Assembly: GCA_019637795.1 (NCBI GenBank)
Contig: JAHBUY010000006.1
Coordinates: forward strand, 114,330 to 178,329
Direction of reading: 5' to 3'
DNA length: 64,000 nt
From: a bacterium
GTDB taxonomy: Bacteria > Desulfobacterota > Binatia > HRBIN30 > CADEER01
The notes under the pieces are model-generated. The model was not told the origin of the DNA and did not search any database. It was given only the letters and a program-made list of their open reading frames with translations. The position numbers and the translations under genes were made by a program. This document shows, piece after piece, positions 1 through 25,322 of this stretch (position 1 is the stretch's first letter; every line of letters begins with the position of its first letter).

Positions 1-647
1 TCCTCGCCCTCGACCGCCGACAGCGAGGCGCCGATGCGGCCGATGGCCGAGTCGCGGCCGGTGGCGCGCACCAGCAGGCGCCCGCGGCCGCGGGTCACCA
101 GCGTCCCCGAATAGACGAACGGCGTGGCGTCGCCGCCCGGCGGCGCCATGGCGAACGCCGCCGGATCGGCGCGCTTGTCGACGCCCAGCGCCTCGCCGGT
201 GAGGAGCGACTCGTCGACCGCGAGGTGCTCGGCCTCGAGCAGGACGCCGTCGGCCGGCACGCGATCGCCCTCGGCGAGCAGGGCGACGTCGCCCACCACG
301 ACCTCCCGGCCGGCGATCCGCGTCGGTTCGCCGTCGCGCAGCACCAGCGCCCGCGGGCTCGACAACTGGCGCAACGCCGCCAGCGCGCGTTCGGCCCGCC
401 ACTCCTGGTAGAGTTCGATGGCGATGATCAGCAGGATGCCGACCCCGAGCACCACCGCCTCGCCGACCGAGCCGAGCGCGAGGTAGATCGCCCCCGCCGC
501 CAGCAGCAGCCCGACCATCGGCTCGCGCACCACCTCCAAGGCGAGGTGCAGCAGGCCGCGCGCCTCGTCGGCGGGCAACTGGTTCGGGCCGTCGGCGGCC
601 AGTCGCCGCGCCGCCTCCGCGGCGGTCAGTCCGCTCCCGTCGTCCAC
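1..647 (-). CDS. P-type cation-transporting ATPase, N-terminal part; the gene continues beyond the window start
   Basis: Minus-strand translation reads VDDGSGLTAAEAARRLAADGPNQL...LVLRDGEPTRIAGREVVVGDVALLAEGDRVPADGVLLE...ESLLTGE, which is a typical N-terminal/actuator region of P-type ATPases. GTG start at 645-647 sits just after an in-frame TAG, with GAGG upstream. The six-frame track lists no ORF here because it has no ATG. Confidence 0.6.
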   Translation of the reverse strand, partial: MDDGSGLTAAEAARRLAADGPNQLPADEARGLLHLALEVVREPMVGLLLAAGAIYLALGSVGEAVVLGVGILLIIAIELYQEWRAERALAALRQLSSPRALVLRDGEPTRIAGREVVVGDVALLAEGDRVPADGVLLEAEHLAVDESLLTGEALGVDKRADPAAFAMAPPGGDATPFVYSGTLVTRGRGRLLVRATGRDSAIGRIGASLSAVEGE

Positions 648-714: not shown

Positions 715-955
715 CGGCCGCGGGTAGTGTCCTAATCTGAGCCTTAGCCCTGATGTGACGAAGGACTTTCACCACGGAGGCACGGAGACACGGAGAGCAC
801 TGATCTCGAAGCCCGCTCAGCGTTCATCCCAAAGTTCATCAGAAATGGAGTGAGAAGAGGCCCCGCGCCTTCGCTATGGCACCGAGCCCTCCGTGTCTCC
901 GTGCCTCCGTGGTGAAGGGTTTTTGTCGTATCGAGATTAGGACAGTACCCGGCCG
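715..955. repeat. ~240 bp imperfect palindromic intergenic element (possible MITE or structured RNA)
   Basis: 24-nt perfect inverted repeat: CCACGGAGGCACGGAGACACGGAG (772-795) against CTCCGTGTCTCCGTGCCTCCGTGG (888-911). A second, outer inverted block is GGGTAGTGTCCTAATCT (723-739) against AGATTAGGACAGTACCC (934-950). The arms flank a ~75 bp lower-GC core. Confidence 0.5.
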
Positions 956-974: not shown

Positions 975-2801
975 TCAGCGGTCCAGCAGCTCGAGCTTCT
1001 CGCGCTCCCTGAACTCGTCGCGCAGCGCCGCGTAGTCGGCGGCGGTGAACGGTCTGAACGCGGTATCGCCGCGCTGCCGCCAATAGACCGGCTCGTTCGC
1101 CGGCAGGCGGCTCAGGTCGAAGTGCGTCTTCTTGTAGTTGCGCACCAGCACCTTCTGCGTCTGCGTGAACTCGAAGTCGCCGACCACGCGGACGAAGTCG
1201 GGGAACCACTTGCGGTCCATGCTGGCGCCGTTCACCTGCGCCTCGCACCAGTCGAAGAAGCCCTTGGGATCGAAGCGGGCGCCGTCGCGCAGCTTGATCG
1301 TCGCCATCACCAGCTCGTCCGACACCGAGCACGGCACGCCGTAGGCGACGGCGAGCTGCACGTCCGGGTGCTCGGAGAGGATGCGGCCGACCTGACCGGC
1401 GGAGAAGTTCTCGCCGTCCTTGCGGATCCAGTCGTCGGTGCGGCCGTCGAAGAAGAGGAAGCGGCGGCCGTCGACGACCAGGATGTGGCCGAGGTCGCCC
1501 GAGTGGTAGACGCCGTCGCGGAACTTCTCGCTGTTGGCCTTGGGATTGTCGAAGTAGCCCTGGAAGAGACCGGTGTCGGCGGCGACGCGGCAGATCTCGC
1601 CGACGCACTGCTCGTAATTCAGCAGCTTGCCGTCGGCGCCGAGCTCGGCCGGCGGGCACTCCGCGCCGTCCGGACCGAGGATCTTCACCGCGGCGTCCAG
1701 CACCTCGCCGACGCTGCCGCGCGGATCGCCCTTGCGGCGGAAGGTGCTGATCGCCGCCTCGGTCGAGCCGTAGAGCTCGAACATGTCCTCGAGCCCCATC
1801 CACTCCATGAACCGATCGATGTCCGGCGGCGCGGCGCCGTTGCCGACCGCGTAGCGGAAGTGGTTCTTCGGGTTGTCGGTGATCTCCGCCTTGATGCGCG
1901 CCTCGTCGCCGCCGTACTGCTTCTCGATCGCCGCCAGGACGTAGTGCACCGGCTCGCCGACGTAGTTCCAGAAGGTGACGCCGTAGCGGAGGACGTCGGG
2001 CACGAACTGGCTGGCGCTGAAGCGCTCGCGCAGCGCCATGCCGCCACCCACCCAGAAGGCCGGCATGAAGCCGACGAACATGGCGTTGGAGTGGAACAGC
2101 GGCATGCAGGCGTAGCCGATGTCGTCGGCGCCGAGCCCGAGGTTGGCGCTGACGCCGAAGCCGGTGGCGCACAGTTTGGTGTGGTTGTTGTTGATCCCCT
2201 TCGGCAGGCCGGTGGTGCCCGACGTGTAGATCACCATCAGGTTGGTGTCGCTGGTCACCGTCACCGGCGGCGCCTCGAGCGACCGCCCGGCGGGCGCGAC
2301 CTCGCGCTCGACGCAGGCGACGAGGTCGGCCGCGGGGTCGACGTCGCCGGCCCCGGTCTTGAGGATGAGCACGTTTTCCGGCGCGAGATGGGTGAGGTCG
2401 CGCCGGATGCGCTCGACCTCGGGCCAGAAGCGCTCGTCCACCACCAGCAGGCGGGCGCGCGACTGGTTCAGCACCCCGGTCAGCACCTCGCCGCGCAGCC
2501 CGGTGTTGACGCCGAACAGCGTCAGGCCGCCGAAGGCGCAGCCGCCGTACAGCGCCAGCAGCTCGAGGTGGTTCTCCAGCACCATCGCCACGTGGCCGGG
2601 CCGCCGCTCATCGATGGAGCCGAGGCGGCGCAGGAGGAAGTGCGCCATGCGCACCGACTCGTCGCGGAATTGCGCGTATGTCCAGCGCCGGTCGCCCTGC
2701 ATGAGCACCGTCTTCTTCGACGCCTCCGGGTGGACGGCGCGCGCCTCGATCTGCTCGCCAACGGTAAAGCCTGCCTCGAATGCCAGCGGTGGTGCTGCCA
2801 C
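975..2801 (-). CDS. AMP-dependent acyl-CoA synthetase/ligase (long-chain fatty acid-CoA ligase-like)
   Basis: YTSGTTGLPKG AMP-binding motif and overall ANL-superfamily layout; 608 aa ORF from the track. Confidence 0.85.
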   Translation of the reverse strand: MAAPPLAFEAGFTVGEQIEARAVHPEASKKTVLMQGDRRWTYAQFRDESVRMAHFLLRRLGSIDERRPGHVAMVLENHLELLALYGGCAFGGLTLFGVNTGLRGEVLTGVLNQSRARLLVVDERFWPEVERIRRDLTHLAPENVLILKTGAGDVDPAADLVACVEREVAPAGRSLEAPPVTVTSDTNLMVIYTSGTTGLPKGINNNHTKLCATGFGVSANLGLGADDIGYACMPLFHSNAMFVGFMPAFWVGGGMALRERFSASQFVPDVLRYGVTFWNYVGEPVHYVLAAIEKQYGGDEARIKAEITDNPKNHFRYAVGNGAAPPDIDRFMEWMGLEDMFELYGSTEAAISTFRRKGDPRGSVGEVLDAAVKILGPDGAECPPAELGADGKLLNYEQCVGEICRVAADTGLFQGYFDNPKANSEKFRDGVYHSGDLGHILVVDGRRFLFFDGRTDDWIRKDGENFSAGQVGRILSEHPDVQLAVAYGVPCSVSDELVMATIKLRDGARFDPKGFFDWCEAQVNGASMDRKWFPDFVRVVGDFEFTQTQKVLVRNYKKTHFDLSRLPANEPVYWRQRGDTAFRPFTAADYAALRDEFREREKLELLDR

Positions 2802-3631: not shown

Positions 3632-6577
3632 CTACCCCGCCGCCCCGACGACGCACACCCCCGCGGCGCACTGGCCGTTCTGCTCGCCGACCCGGCAGTC
3701 GAGGCCCTCGGCGCCGGGTTCGCTGCGGCAGGTGCCGCCGCGGTCGCGGTAGTCGTAGGTGCACGGATTGCCGTCGTTGCAGGTGTTCGGCACGCATCCG
3801 GGCGAGCCCTGGATGCAGAAGGCCGACAGCGGCGTGTCGCGCCGGGCTTCGCGGTCGGCATCCGCGCCCTCGTTGAACGCGCCGGTGCCGGCGCCGACGA
3901 ACATCTGGCCGCCGACGATGGTGGCGCCGGCGGCGACGCCGCTCGGCACCGGGGCGGCGAGCACGGACTTGAGCAGCGAGCCGCCCTGGCGATCGAACAC
4001 GTTGATGTTGGGGCGCGGCGTGCCGCCGCACAGCGCCAGCCCGGGCACGCCCATGCACGGCGCGTACGACGTGTCGGCGCTCGAGTCCTGCCAGCGGACG
4101 CTGCCGTCGCTGAGGTTCAGCGCGTGCACCGACGGCTTCTGCGGCCGGCTGATGCTGAAGCCGAAGCCGGTGCTGAACACCGCGATGCCCTCGCCCACCG
4201 AGGCCGAGCCGATGATGCCGCCGATCGGCCCGCCGGGAACGACGTTGGTCGCCCAGTATGGCTCGACGACGCCGCTGATCTGGTTCACGCCGCCGCGGTC
4301 GAGCGCGTAGTAGGTGCCGTCCTTGCCGCCGACGCCGACCAGGTCGCGCACCGCGCCGCCGATCTCCGCCTCGAAGAGATTCGGCACGGCGCCGAAGTCG
4401 AGATCGTCGGGATCCACCTCGCGGGGCCGCCAGCTCCAGGCCAGGTCGCCGTCGAGGGTCAGCGCGATGATCGCCTCCTCGAGCGGCGGCGTCACCGGCG
4501 GCTGCGGCGTGTTGGGATCGTCGTCGACGTCGCAGTTGCTCGATACCGTGTAGAGCTGGCGCCGCCGCATGTCGACCGCCATCGACGACCAGATGTTGCC
4601 GCAGCCGATGCTGGTGCGGTCGAAGTCGCAGCCCGGCCGGCTCTCCAGGAATCCCTCCGGCAGGCCGAGCGCCTCGGCGCTGTGGAAGCCGTCGAAGCGG
4701 CGGATGTTGTCCTCGGCGAAGGGCCGGCAGGTGGCGGTGGTGACGACGTCGAACCACCAGGCGAGGCGGCCGTCGTCGGCGCGCAACGCGAAGATGGCGC
4801 CCTTGCCGGGAACGCCGTCATTGGTGTCCATGCCGAGCAGCACCAGGCCGTCGACCACCGCCGGCGTCGATTCGATCTGGTTGCGCTCCTCGCGCGTCGT
4901 GCAGGTGGTGCAGCCGGTGCCGGCGTCGAACTGCCAGAGCTCGGCGCCGGTGGTGGCGTCGAGGCAGTAGAGCGTCTCGCCGCCCGGGACGTAGACGCGC
5001 TGCTGGCCGTCGATCCAGGCCACCGTCGGCGAGCCGGCGTACGGATAGTAGGTGCCCGGCTGCGGCTTCATGAGATAGCGCCACGCCAGGCTGCCGTTCT
5101 CGGCGCGCAGCGCGTACACGTAGCGATCCCACGAGGGGACGATGACGATCTGCGTCCGGCCCTCGCCCGGCAGGTCCACCCAGGTGACCGCGGCCTGGGC
5201 GCTGATCATGCCGCCGGTCATGTAGCGCCACTTGTTGACCAACTGCGGCGCCGTGCCGGCATTGAGCGCCCGTTCGCGCGGATTGAAGTAGGTGCGGCGG
5301 ATGCTGCCGCCGAGGGTGAGCCACTCGTCGGCGCGCGACGGCAGCACGGCCAGGCCGTCGGGGAAGCTGATGCCGCGTCGCATCAGCTCCGGCTCGGACG
5401 GCCGGCCGGCGTCGTCGAAGGTGACGCGGCGCAGCGTGCCGGCGCCGGCGACGTCCTCGTTCTGCTCGTTCAGCCCGAGGTCGGCGTAGTAGAGCGTGCC
5501 CTGCGAGTCGAAGGCCATGCCGGCCGGGTTGCCCCAATCGCCCGGCGGCAGCACCTCGCGGAGGAAGGTGCCGTCGGCGGCGTGCTCGCGGATGCCGGCG
5601 TCCCGCCCGGCGAGGCCGACCACCTGCGAGACGAAGAAGTGGCCATCGCGACCGCGCGCCACGCCGAGGGATGCGACCGCGTCGCTGTAGGCGATGAACG
5701 GCGTCTTCACTGGCACCACCGTGTCGCACTCGTCGGCGTTGGCGGGGAACGGCGCCGCATAGCGCTGCACCCGACCCGGCGGCCCCGCCTCGGCGACGTA
5801 GAGGTTGCCGTCGTCGTCGCTGGTCATCAGACCGGGCGTCCGCAGGCCGCCGTCGAGCGTGCAACTGGTGGTGTAGTCCGGGGGGAAGAACACGACGAGA
5901 TGGCCGTCGGCGCCGCCCTGGGAGCCGATGGCGCTGCCGAACAGCCGCCCGTCGGCGTCGACCACGCAGCCGATCGGATCGGGGTTGGTGGTCTCGTTGT
6001 CGAACGCCGGAAGGGGAATCTTCTGCAGGAAGGTGCCGTCGGCCGAGAAGATCGCCCACCCCGGACGGACCGCCGGCTGGCCGGTGTCCTCGCCGCCGAC
6101 GTAGCTGCCGGCGCCGCCCGGCAGCAGGCAGATCTGGCCGTTGATGTTGGCGTGGGTGTTGGGGACGGTCGTCGTCACCGCCCCGCTCGCCAGATCGTAC
6201 TCGTCGAGCTGGTTGTTCTGCGGGCTGAACAGCACCTCGCCGGCGGGGCCGCCGCCGCAGCCGGACAGCGCCTTGGTGACTCCGCGCACCAGCTCGTTGA
6301 TCCCCACCACGCCGTCGCGATTGTTGTCGATGGCGTCGCAGACCCCGATGGCGTCGCCGCCGAGGGCGATGGTGACCGCCCGCACCAGCTCGTCGATCGT
6401 GACGCGCCGATCGTCGTTGCAGTCGCCGACGCACGCGCTGCCCGCGCGCGGCAGGAGGACGGGCGCGACCAGCGCGCAGATGGCAATCCAGCGACGGACC
6501 CTCGAACGCATTGCGACCCCCGTGGCGAAGCGTGTTGCGCTGGACGCACTCTGCCCGCTCGGGCGAAGAGTTGCCAA
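3632..6577 (-). CDS. large secreted multidomain protein: signal peptide, Cys-bracketed dockerin-like double repeat, PQQ-like beta-propeller repeats, C-terminal Myxococcus-type Cys-rich repeat
   Basis: N-terminus CVGDCNDDRRVTIDELVRAVTIALG...CDAIDNNRDGVVGINELVRGVTKALSGC. Repeated ...DG.LAW(R/W)(F/Y) PQQ/BamB-like blades. C-terminus CNDGNPCTYD...C. The true start may be the downstream ATG at 6511 (MRSRVRRWIAICALVAPVLLP signal peptide). Confidence 0.75.
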   Translation of the reverse strand: MATLRPSGQSASSATRFATGVAMRSRVRRWIAICALVAPVLLPRAGSACVGDCNDDRRVTIDELVRAVTIALGGDAIGVCDAIDNNRDGVVGINELVRGVTKALSGCGGGPAGEVLFSPQNNQLDEYDLASGAVTTTVPNTHANINGQICLLPGGAGSYVGGEDTGQPAVRPGWAIFSADGTFLQKIPLPAFDNETTNPDPIGCVVDADGRLFGSAIGSQGGADGHLVVFFPPDYTTSCTLDGGLRTPGLMTSDDDGNLYVAEAGPPGRVQRYAAPFPANADECDTVVPVKTPFIAYSDAVASLGVARGRDGHFFVSQVVGLAGRDAGIREHAADGTFLREVLPPGDWGNPAGMAFDSQGTLYYADLGLNEQNEDVAGAGTLRRVTFDDAGRPSEPELMRRGISFPDGLAVLPSRADEWLTLGGSIRRTYFNPRERALNAGTAPQLVNKWRYMTGGMISAQAAVTWVDLPGEGRTQIVIVPSWDRYVYALRAENGSLAWRYLMKPQPGTYYPYAGSPTVAWIDGQQRVYVPGGETLYCLDATTGAELWQFDAGTGCTTCTTREERNQIESTPAVVDGLVLLGMDTNDGVPGKGAIFALRADDGRLAWWFDVVTTATCRPFAEDNIRRFDGFHSAEALGLPEGFLESRPGCDFDRTSIGCGNIWSSMAVDMRRRQLYTVSSNCDVDDDPNTPQPPVTPPLEEAIIALTLDGDLAWSWRPREVDPDDLDFGAVPNLFEAEIGGAVRDLVGVGGKDGTYYALDRGGVNQISGVVEPYWATNVVPGGPIGGIIGSASVGEGIAVFSTGFGFSISRPQKPSVHALNLSDGSVRWQDSSADTSYAPCMGVPGLALCGGTPRPNINVFDRQGGSLLKSVLAAPVPSGVAAGATIVGGQMFVGAGTGAFNEGADADREARRDTPLSAFCIQGSPGCVPNTCNDGNPCTYDYRDRGGTCRSEPGAEGLDCRVGEQNGQCAAGVCVVGAAG

Positions 6578-9036: not shown

Positions 9037-9744
9037 ATGACGCGACTGCCGATGCTGCTGGCCCTGGTTGCCCTGAGCACGCCCGTCCTCGCCGACGACG
9101 CGCCGCCGCCGCGGACCATCGCGGTGACCGGCGAGGGGCGGGTGAGCGCCGCGCCGGACCTGGCGGTGGTGTCGTTCGGGGTCGAGACCACCGCCCCCAC
9201 CGCCGCCGCCGCGGTCGCCGACAACGCCAGGAAGAGCACGGCGCTGGTCGACGCGATCAAGCAGAAGATCGGCGCCCGCGACACGGTGGCGACGACGCAA
9301 TACTCGCTGTCGCCGGTGTACGAACAGCGCGACCGCGCCAGCCAGGCGCCGCCGAAGATCACCGGCTACATCGCGAGCAATCTGGTGCGGGTCGAGCTGC
9401 ACGATGTGAAGGCGGTCGGCGCGCTCATCGACGCCGCCACCAGCGCCGGCGCCAACCGCGCCAACGACCTCCAGTTCACGCTCGAGGAGCGCGCCGAGGC
9501 GCAGTCGCAGGCGCTGGCGCGCGCCGGCGCCGACGCCAAACGGCAGGCCGCGGCGGCCGCGGCGGCCCTCGGGGTCGCGCTCGGCCGCGTGCTCTCGGCG
9601 AGCACGGGCGGCGGCCCGATCATCATGCCGAAGACCTTCGCCCGCGCCGGCATGGTGGCGATGGCCGAGAGCGTGCCGCCGCCGGTCGAGGCCAGCGACG
9701 TCGACGTCACCGCCACCCTGCAGGTCACCTACGAGATCGAGTAG
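9037..9744 (+). CDS. SIMPL/DUF541 family periplasmic protein (YggE-like)
   Basis: Signal peptide, then ...AAPDLAVVSFGVET...KITGYIASNLVRVEL...VDVTATLQVTYEI, the typical SIMPL domain layout. Confidence 0.8.
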   Translation: MTRLPMLLALVALSTPVLADDAPPPRTIAVTGEGRVSAAPDLAVVSFGVETTAPTAAAAVADNARKSTALVDAIKQKIGARDTVATTQYSLSPVYEQRDRASQAPPKITGYIASNLVRVELHDVKAVGALIDAATSAGANRANDLQFTLEERAEAQSQALARAGADAKRQAAAAAAALGVALGRVLSASTGGGPIIMPKTFARAGMVAMAESVPPPVEASDVDVTATLQVTYEIE

Positions 9745-25272: not shown

Positions 25273-25322
25273 TGGCCGACGCGCGGGAGGGCCGGCGCGC
25301 CGGCCCTCCCGCGCAGCCGCGC

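Follow-up and report, generated by a model that had tools for sequence, protein, structure and literature searches.

The nested palindrome at positions 721-951 of the window, by which we mean the whole 64,000-nt stretch of Binatia DNA analysed here (contig JAHBUY010000006.1), is probably a gene-less ('solo') member of a family of intercistronic hairpins that extends across phyla and whose larger members carry a GxxExxY gene (PD-(D/E)XK superfamily, PF13366/TIGR04256) in the loop. The arms of this family are inverted arrays of 7-9-nt tandem repeats. The 28-bp arm of the window element recurs in many phyla, as hairpins with unrelated loops located after stop codons, and arms of the same type are found around GxxExxY genes. 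In addition, 721-951 is compositionally foreign, low-GC DNA at a gene junction that is closed in a relative. The relation of the solo to the gene-carrying form resembles that of a miniature inverted-repeat transposable element (MITE) to its gene-carrying parent.

The element is a nested imperfect palindrome of 231 bp situated, as the first-pass annotation had stated, between the start of a P-type ATPase gene and the stop of an acyl-CoA synthetase gene. The synthetase has an AMP-binding domain; the ATPase open reading frame (ORF) is 81% identical to the P-type ATPase of a relative, and it is in this orthologue that the Pfam domains were found. The perfect stem is 28 bp long (768-795 against 889-916, TTCACCACGGAGGCACGGAGACACGGAG). 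The 24-nt perfect inverted repeat described earlier is part of this stem; its left arm, CCACGGAGGCACGGAGACACGGAG, lies at 772-795 as proposed, while the reverse complement is at 889-912 instead of 888-911. With mismatches, the inner repeat extends over 752-798 and 886-932 (47 nt, 83% complementarity). The outer inverted block seen in the first pass is present as an 18-nt repeat with one mismatch (721-738 and 934-951). The core between the perfect arms is GC-poor as claimed (58% GC) and spans 93 nt (796-888) rather than about 75. The inner arm is composed of TTCAC and three tandem 8-nt units (CACGGAGN octamers). The left terminus of the element is GTAG (724-727, right after a candidate target-site duplication) and the right terminus is GTAC. 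The features of the locus are as follows, strand being given for the two genes.

3-647, minus strand: downstream gene, N-terminal part of a P-type cation ATPase; GTG start at 647 with GAGG before it, and an in-frame TAG 4 codons upstream
715-723: left 9-bp direct repeat CGGCCGCGG, overlapping the outer inverted repeat by its last 3 nt; candidate target-site duplication; P ~0.02
721-738: outer inverted repeat, left arm CGGGTAGTGTCCTAATCT; sharp GC drop; 2 matches against 0.00 expected
739-767: left sub-arm, diverged from the right sub-arm and with ~12 extra nt; 752-767 is partly complementary to 917-932
768-795: left family-type arm, TTCAC followed by CACGGAGG, CACGGAGA and CACGGAG; 28 nt, perfect partner 889-916
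796-888: core or loop, unique sequence; 93 nt, 58% GC
889-916: right family-type arm, CTCCGTG followed by TCTCCGTG, CCTCCGTG and GTGAA; perfect partner 768-795
917-933: right sub-arm GGGTTTTTGTCGTATCG; 42-49% GC
934-951: outer inverted repeat, right arm AGATTAGGACAGTACCCG; 1 mismatch to the left arm
950-958: right 9-bp direct repeat CGGCCGCGG; P ~0.02
975-2801, minus strand: upstream gene, acyl-CoA synthetase (AMP-binding domain); distance from its stop 23 nt (952-974) to the outer repeat, 58 nt to the 28-bp stem

Within the 64-kb window, CACGGAGNCACGGAG has 4 matches against 0.09 expected, the outer 17-mer has 2 against 0.00 expected, and no hairpin comparable to 721-951 was found elsewhere. 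A perfect 34-nt palindrome, GCGCGGGAGGGCCGGCGCGCCGGCCCTCCCGCGC, at 25281-25314 is possibly a terminator or a binding site. The element folds stably on both strands, at about -135 kcal/mol (z about -10.5), a value equalled by 0 of 200 shuffles. This extreme stability, together with a position on the transcribed strand between the synthetase stop (23 nt away) and the ATPase start (67 nt away), would suit a locally evolved regulatory RNA or terminator, acting either as a terminator or attenuator of the synthetase or as a structured 5' leader controlling the ATPase. A long-stem regulatory RNA in the ATPase leader had indeed been put forward in the first pass. We regard such an origin as very improbable. 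No U-tract terminator was called in 550-1100 on either strand, and no sigma-70-like promoter was detected within the element or close to it. The sequence that follows the stem on the transcribed strand is GGUGAAAGUCCUUCG. A search of Rfam over 500-1200 with permissive thresholds returned only generic long-hairpin noise (best 16.4 bits against a threshold of 70, E 0.33). In the relative with the same gene pair (locus L122), the stop and start overlap, so that the ATPase orthologue is without any leader, and the same stem adjoins unrelated genes in many phyla, mostly just past their stops. The leader proposal is therefore not retained, and the accompanying judgement that the structure is far more than an intrinsic terminator holds.

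Several other identities were rejected. A short GC-rich stem-loop followed by a U tract, as expected of an intrinsic terminator, is not what is found here. The ends are TTCAC ... GTGAA (inner) and GGGTAG ... AGTACCC (outer) instead of the RYYYAAC ... GTTRRRY of an integron attC site, and the neighbours are housekeeping genes in conserved synteny. A CRISPR array is not indicated, there being a single repeat pair and no spacers, and the arms are not coding sequence because their 8-nt period is not a multiple of three. The element is likewise no 23S rRNA intervening sequence proper, since it lies between two protein-coding genes and not in a 23S helix (9, 25 or 45).

The family was delineated by an arm scan for exact CACGGAGNCACGGAGNCACGGAG in contigs from one genome per species, which gave at least 120 loci; 44 further contigs with this arm are present in IMG/VR. 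The carriers belong to Planctomycetota, Acidobacteriota, the Verrucomicrobiota group (Lentisphaerae, Kiritimatiellia and Opitutaceae), Chloroflexota and Nitrospirota, and, among the matches listed, also to Myxococcota, Geobacteraceae, Gemmatimonadota, Binatia-like metagenome-assembled genomes (MAGs) and others. Some of the arm-carrying MAGs also encode the closest homologues of the window synthetase. The stem, with arms of 28-30 nt, is the only part of the window that is matched in the family loci, and 30 nt are 100% identical to the window arm in loci as distant as L008 (Blastocatellia) and L034 (Phycisphaerales). Conserved sequence extends only 5 nt beyond the octamers, to TTCAC. The class is defined by inverted arms that consist of TTCAC (or a close variant) and at least three tandem 8-9-nt purine-rich units of the form C[AG]C[AGC][AG]AG-N. 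The window arms at 768-795 and 889-916 have this form, and the element also has the position typical of the class, a short spacer after a stop codon between neighbours on the same (minus) strand.

An inverted partner was found within 2.5 kb (at most 6 mismatches of 28) for 62 of the 144 arm occurrences. The loops of 45 paired hairpins range from 6 to 527 nt, with clusters at 17-33 and 65-136 nt. They are unrelated between genomes and contain no conserved loop RNA; the core of the window element has no similarity to the loops of the other 44. Paired hairpins with resolved context lie between same-strand genes in 13 cases, between convergent genes in 2 and between divergent genes in 0, at a median of 15 nt past the stop codon; a looser count of all arms gave 56 same-strand, 17 convergent and 10 divergent positions. 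The hairpins of Binatia-like MAGs related to the source (L040, L108 and L085) directly follow stop codons, with fold z values of -7.7 to -11.2. In a Polyangiaceae contig (L099), several hairpin copies are alike beyond their arms too, which would follow from intragenomic copying of whole hairpins. The outer flanks are significantly complementary in 6 of 40 family hairpins, the window element included, and L103 has double arms. As nested palindromes thus exist around other members, the window element may consist of a family hairpin nested within an older one, or may be a long-armed variant specific to its lineage.

Beyond the three GxxExxY genes described below, no recurrent neighbour protein emerged from all-against-all BLASTP of 3935 ORFs from the 120 loci; no protein family occurs in more than 7 of the 120, and none of these families is a tyrosine transposase. 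A BLAST search of plasmids with the stem alone returned weak matches only. In the literature searched, mostly outside subscription journals, no description was found of these hairpins or of repeats flanking GxxExxY genes. Other short arrays were noticed in the same loci. Partnerless CACGGAG arms often precede other short tandem arrays (L002, L022, L023, L026, L034 and L113), with units such as ATCGGGAC, CGCCAAG, GGGTTCAG, AATCCGTG and GAGGAGT, and some intergenic regions are mosaics of 7-8-nt arrays. In a Chloroflexi MAG (L090, 1990-2560), a HIT-family gene has a complete GAGTGCTG-octamer hairpin on either side; the architecture is the same with a different unit, and this MAG also has CACGGAG hairpins (L080).

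Repetitive extragenic palindromic (REP) sequences, with their bacterial interspersed mosaic elements (BIMEs) and REPINs, are also extragenic palindromic repeats, found mostly at the 3' ends of genes as singletons and inverted doublets, and roles in mRNA stabilisation and termination have been proposed for them (PMC3733652). The window element could be seen as a REPIN, a pair of inverted, GTAG-tagged palindromes whose spread depends on a REP-associated tyrosine transposase (RAYT). A GTAG tetranucleotide does occur at one terminus, at 724 just after the candidate duplication, and the doublet-hairpin layout and the location 3' of a gene resemble those of REP doublets (PMC3733652). A CACGGAG arm of a Pirellulales MAG (L004) has, at a distance of 1.4 kb, an ORF (4833-5435, minus strand) whose HUH-like HVHVV motif gives it the appearance of an IS200/RAYT-type tyrosine transposase. 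However, this ORF is surrounded by an unrelated 30-nt inverted repeat ending in CTAC, other loci do not have such an ORF, and across the 120 loci no tyrosine-transposase-like protein recurs near the hairpins, and no RAYT association was found. The arms are direct octamer arrays and not self-complementary short palindromes, the right terminus is GTAC instead of GTAG, and the window contains one copy. Finally, each REP family belongs to a single species, but the present arm is common to many phyla. A REP origin is accordingly, in our assessment, very improbable.

The link to a gene comes from loops at the upper end of the size range. In L033, L103 and L099, the loops are ~380-530 nt long and each holds one GxxExxY gene (TIGR04256 E 1e-44; PF13366 PDDEXK_3). 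The related cassette of L137 reads ...ACATGA, then TTCACCACGGAGACACCGAGGCACGGAG, the gene and CTCCGTGCCTCTGTGTCTCCGTGGTGAA, followed by TGAATTG; it fits exactly between the stop of a carboxyltransferase gene and the start of an HMG-CoA lyase gene (TGA/TTCAC...GTGAA/TGA). Gene callers predict GxxExxY proteins of 136-137 aa, at this locus (L137, 1498-1550) and at others, with a putative start at an ATG that overlaps the upstream TGA (ATGA) and a frame that would run through the left arm (MIHHGDTE.RS...). The downstream HMG-CoA lyase may start at the GTG in the last bases of the right arm (GTGAA).

GxxExxY genes were also sampled by protein similarity, which avoids ascertainment through the arms. 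Seven such genes from plasmids or chromids have clear inverted tandem arms in five instances, weak arms in one and none in one. The five clear cases (Bacteroides, Gemmatirosa, Bernardetia, Sphingomonas and Treponema) have TTCAC-type inverted arrays with 8-9-nt units, and the plasmid and chromid genes sit between same-strand housekeeping genes, for example fabD and fabG. Inverted tandem-repeat arms also accompany all five GxxExxY genes taken from IMG/VR. When these independent samples are pooled, 10 of 12 genes are clearly bracketed and 1 weakly. Under one scoring rule, most cassette genes reach an inverted-repeat score of 14-26. The 609 control genes have a 95th percentile of 10, and the few of them that score high adjoin family hairpins. 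A comparable arrangement exists for four-helix-bundle genes of the S23p family (the ORF family of 23S rRNA intervening sequences), which are bracketed by inverted tandem heptamers in 5/5 plasmid examples.

The GxxExxY family itself is abundant, with 7975 homologues at E <1e-20 among 8000 candidates scored. PF13366 is a PD-(D/E)XK family whose function is listed as unknown and for which 'multiple transfers' between divisions have been described (PMC3424549). A sequence search of the PDB gave no match, and the AlphaFold model, made from a shallow alignment, has a mean pLDDT (predicted local distance difference test score) of 44. Phages as a vector were considered and rejected, since the family is absent from deposited phage genomes and none of the 44 arm-bearing IMG/VR contigs has a GxxExxY gene next to the arm. 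In the window, the core at 796-888 is without a convincing ORF, stops being abundant in its six-frame translations, and a lone weak match to the GxxExxY hidden Markov model (E 1.6) lies ~1.8 kb off, in an antisense ORF of the synthetase. With no GxxExxY match in the window or the core, the window element corresponds to the gene-less form of the class.

One junction in Acidobacteria gives a view of how the two forms may be related. Relatives of L137 that have an 89-93% identical HMG-CoA lyase were compared at the same junction. In L137 and L033, the junction holds the GxxExxY cassette. In L200, it holds a gene-less hairpin of AATCCGTG units (z -3.1), with collinear traces of the GxxExxY 5' end in the loop (best E 0.03). 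L196 has a decayed form of the L200-type hairpin (z -1.0), and L198 has a strong hairpin made from a different octamer, TTGAGTGA (z -5.4). The series fits a succession from cassette through gene loss to a solo hairpin and its decay, with occasional replacement, and the decay in L196 implies that selection does not always maintain these hairpins.

The same series bears on the possibility that such hairpins grow in place without any mobility, a short inverted repeat being expanded by octamer slippage, homogenised by hairpin-templated correction and kept by selection for an intercistronic RNA hairpin that serves termination, stability or processing. Under such growth, one orthologous junction could keep its hairpin architecture and yet have different units in different lineages, the loops could be unrelated between genomes, tandem-repeat arms could pair out of register, as they are able to in L108, and the hairpins could lie a median of 15 nt past stop codons with none divergent in the paired set. 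All of this is observed. However, independent growth leaves the identical arms of 28-30 nt in different phyla unexplained, the decaying hairpin of L196 argues against strong selection, the entire 231 bp of the window element is foreign in composition, including the non-repetitive outer arms and core, and the relative L122 has no spacer from which a hairpin could grow. Growth in place is thus an unlikely account of the window element.

The evidence that the window element is an addition to its locus comes from composition and from this relative. Among 6377 stretches of 231 nt in the window, the segment 721-951 ranks first for low GC, with 57.1% (median 73.2%). The minimum begins exactly at 721, and the outer arms have 49-53% GC against 76-83% in the flanks. 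As the drop takes in the outer arms, the whole nested palindrome, and not the inner stem alone, behaves as one inserted unit. The closest homologues, judged by their protein names, suggest a Candidatus Binatia-like organism. L122 is the only relative with the same gene pair (synthetase 89% and ATPase 81% identical), and there the synthetase stop and the ATPase start overlap as TGATG, without spacer, and the N-terminus of the ATPase is 15 residues longer than in the window. The spacer of the window is 327 nt, made up of 23 nt, the element and 73 nt, the last 6 of which form a short extra pairing with the right flank. Other relatives (85-91% identity) have different downstream genes.

Two further observations concern the synthetase. 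A 657-aa ORF on the plus strand (876-2849), which starts in the core, is an antisense shadow of the synthetase gene in DNA of 73% GC; its codon-position GC is unlike that of a gene, while the minus-strand ORF has a GC3 (GC at third codon positions) of 0.96. This ORF would read the right arm as '...PCLRASVV...', the sort of peptide that characterises spurious small proteins in genomes of this type. An identical synthetase is present in only one other assembly, a 2.7-kb short-read Logan contig (L121, SRR31678705) whose end, at its position 2690, corresponds to ~920 of the window and falls 3 nt short of the TTCAC of the stem. Such hairpins are probably a cause of breaks in short-read assemblies.

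The first-pass annotation had called the palindrome MITE-like, and this description stands in part. Like MITEs, including the Correia or NEMIS elements of Neisseria, the element is small, non-coding, palindromic and intergenic with terminal inverted repeats (the outer 18-nt repeat; 231 bp, below ~600 bp; no ORF in the core), its composition is foreign, a relative lacks the spacer, and the gene-carrying form of the class has the same arms. The GxxExxY cassettes share the inner arms of the window element and not its outer repeat. Other features of MITEs are less in evidence: one copy is present in 64 kb, outer repeat and core are unmatched elsewhere, and the sole candidate duplication is 9 bp of GC-rich sequence (P ~0.02). 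Unlike in MITEs, the protein encoded by the gene-carrying form belongs to the PD-(D/E)XK superfamily and is no known transposase. The unrelated loops between genomes indicate, again unlike a MITE, that the family does not arise by simple copy-and-paste of one consensus element.

A classical MITE in the strict sense would be a deletion derivative of an ordinary insertion sequence, with the outer 18-bp repeat as its ends, a 9-bp duplication, transposase acting in trans and the CACGGAG arrays as subterminal binding sites. The outer repeat, with one mismatch, does coincide exactly with the boundary in composition, the element is small, non-coding and GC-poor, the junction in L122 is empty, and CGGCCGCGG is directly repeated at the flanks (715-723 and 950-958). 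The chance of a 9-bp repeat between 30-nt segments 241 nt apart is ~0.02 in this GC-rich window. This repeat overlaps the inverted repeat by 3 nt, however, and lies in DNA of 80% GC. No second copy of the outer repeat was found anywhere searched and its combination with the stem was not recovered from metagenomes; no insertion sequence with these ends was found, nor any transposase recurring near CACGGAG hairpins. Conservation of the family elsewhere ends at TTCAC, so the outer repeat is not a family feature. We consider a classical MITE unlikely, although not negligible.

Likenesses to other known systems also come into play. Correia elements are reportedly co-transcribed with neighbouring genes and their hairpins cut by RNase III (work of De Gregorio et al., 2002-2003). 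The short tandemly repeated repetitive (STRR) heptamers of heterocystous cyanobacteria are said to be 7-nt tandem arrays in intergenic DNA (Mazel et al., 1990). On Calothrix and Anabaena plasmids, we find heptamer arrays in inverted pairs that flank four-helix-bundle genes; STRRs, in contrast, are described as tandem arrays and not as hairpin arms or gene brackets, and their units and host phylum differ from those of the window. The 23S rRNA intervening sequences of Coxiella, Leptospira, Salmonella and others share with the window family a terminal stem of ~28 bp, a loop that is empty or holds one small ORF, a GC content below that of the host and a sporadic distribution suggesting horizontal transfer (PMC4990558). 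In Coxiella, the 28-bp terminal-repeat stem is cut by RNase III, the ORF is in the loop and the GC content is below that of the genome; rRNA intervening sequences have been described as selfish, with an origin unresolved since 1990 (PMC4990558). Their ORF family, S23p, occurs outside rRNA between inverted tandem heptamers, as the GxxExxY genes do between their arrays. They differ in that the window element lies between protein genes, that the passenger of its family is GxxExxY and not S23p, that its arms are tandem octamers, and that cleavage by RNase III is proven for the intervening sequences and only inferred for the window element. The element may be described as MITE-like in its DNA and as putatively similar to an rRNA intervening sequence or a Correia element in its RNA.

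Several points weigh against assigning the window element to a mobile hairpin family with a GxxExxY parent. The palindrome is single-copy within the 64-kb window. Its outer repeat, sub-arms and core have no match in 1.37 Mb of fetched loci, and the whole element has no BLAST match in plasmids and phages. A scan of JGI metagenomes, in which the query combined the stem with only the GTCCTAATCT part of the outer repeat, gave 2 matches, the number predicted by chance. One of them (L128) is a half-site only, at 9650-9725 of metagenome contig LSQX01123734.1 from an AT-rich organism, where TATGTGTCCTAATCTG... is followed 22 nt on by TTCACCACGGAGAACACAGAGAAGCACAGAG without an inverted partner; this site is slightly closer to the outer repeat and stem of the window than the search pattern demanded. 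GxxExxY genes occur at only 3 of ~190 CACGGAG-arm sites (~98% gene-less), and six-frame translations of the window and the core contain neither the gene nor a remnant of it. The candidate target-site duplication is weak and the GxxExxY cassettes show no consistent duplication. The polarity of the change, insertion here as opposed to deletion in L122, rests on one relative of 89% identity and on composition, and the spacers of L122 and the window align too poorly for exact boundaries. The differing octamers at the Acidobacteria junction could stem from concerted evolution in situ instead of replacement. Movement of the element, enzyme activity and RNase III cleavage are matters of inference.

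If the solo-hairpin assignment is correct, the element would have come as DNA by insertion, either as a hairpin copied by a factor acting in trans, for which the GxxExxY nuclease is a candidate, or as a cassette minus its gene. Insertion would have shifted the start of the ATPase to a new GTG 67 nt downstream. As both genes are on the minus strand, the element would be co-transcribed with them and would fold into a long hairpin. In its 28-bp perfect helix, this hairpin would offer RNase III a double-stranded substrate like those it cleaves in 23S rRNA intervening sequences, and cleavage would split and uncouple the two cistrons and leave a protective 3' stem on the synthetase message. A wider and more speculative proposal, which we hold only tentatively, is that many phyla carry selfish cassettes, so far undescribed, which lie between cistrons and are to mRNA what intervening sequences are to rRNA. 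Such cassettes would have a GxxExxY nuclease or an Avd/S23p-like four-helix-bundle gene in the loop and arms of 7-9-nt inverted arrays that serve as recognition sites of the passenger protein; they would enter precisely at stop/start junctions, spread horizontally and, after gene loss, persist as solo hairpins that act as RNase III processing sites.

For the organism, the consequence is that two genes which are translationally coupled in a relative are now 327 nt apart with a very stable hairpin between them, and the ATPase, with a new start codon, is probably expressed independently. The stem marks a hairpin family that is common almost base for base to distant phyla and tied to the abundant, uncharacterised GxxExxY family; the cassette family is apparently widespread and itself uncharacterised. 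If the GxxExxY link holds, it would provide the first functional context for this gene family, would account for many of the assembly breaks and spurious small 'hypothetical proteins' of MAGs from soil and water, and would make the origin and mobility of rRNA intervening sequences accessible to study in a tractable model.

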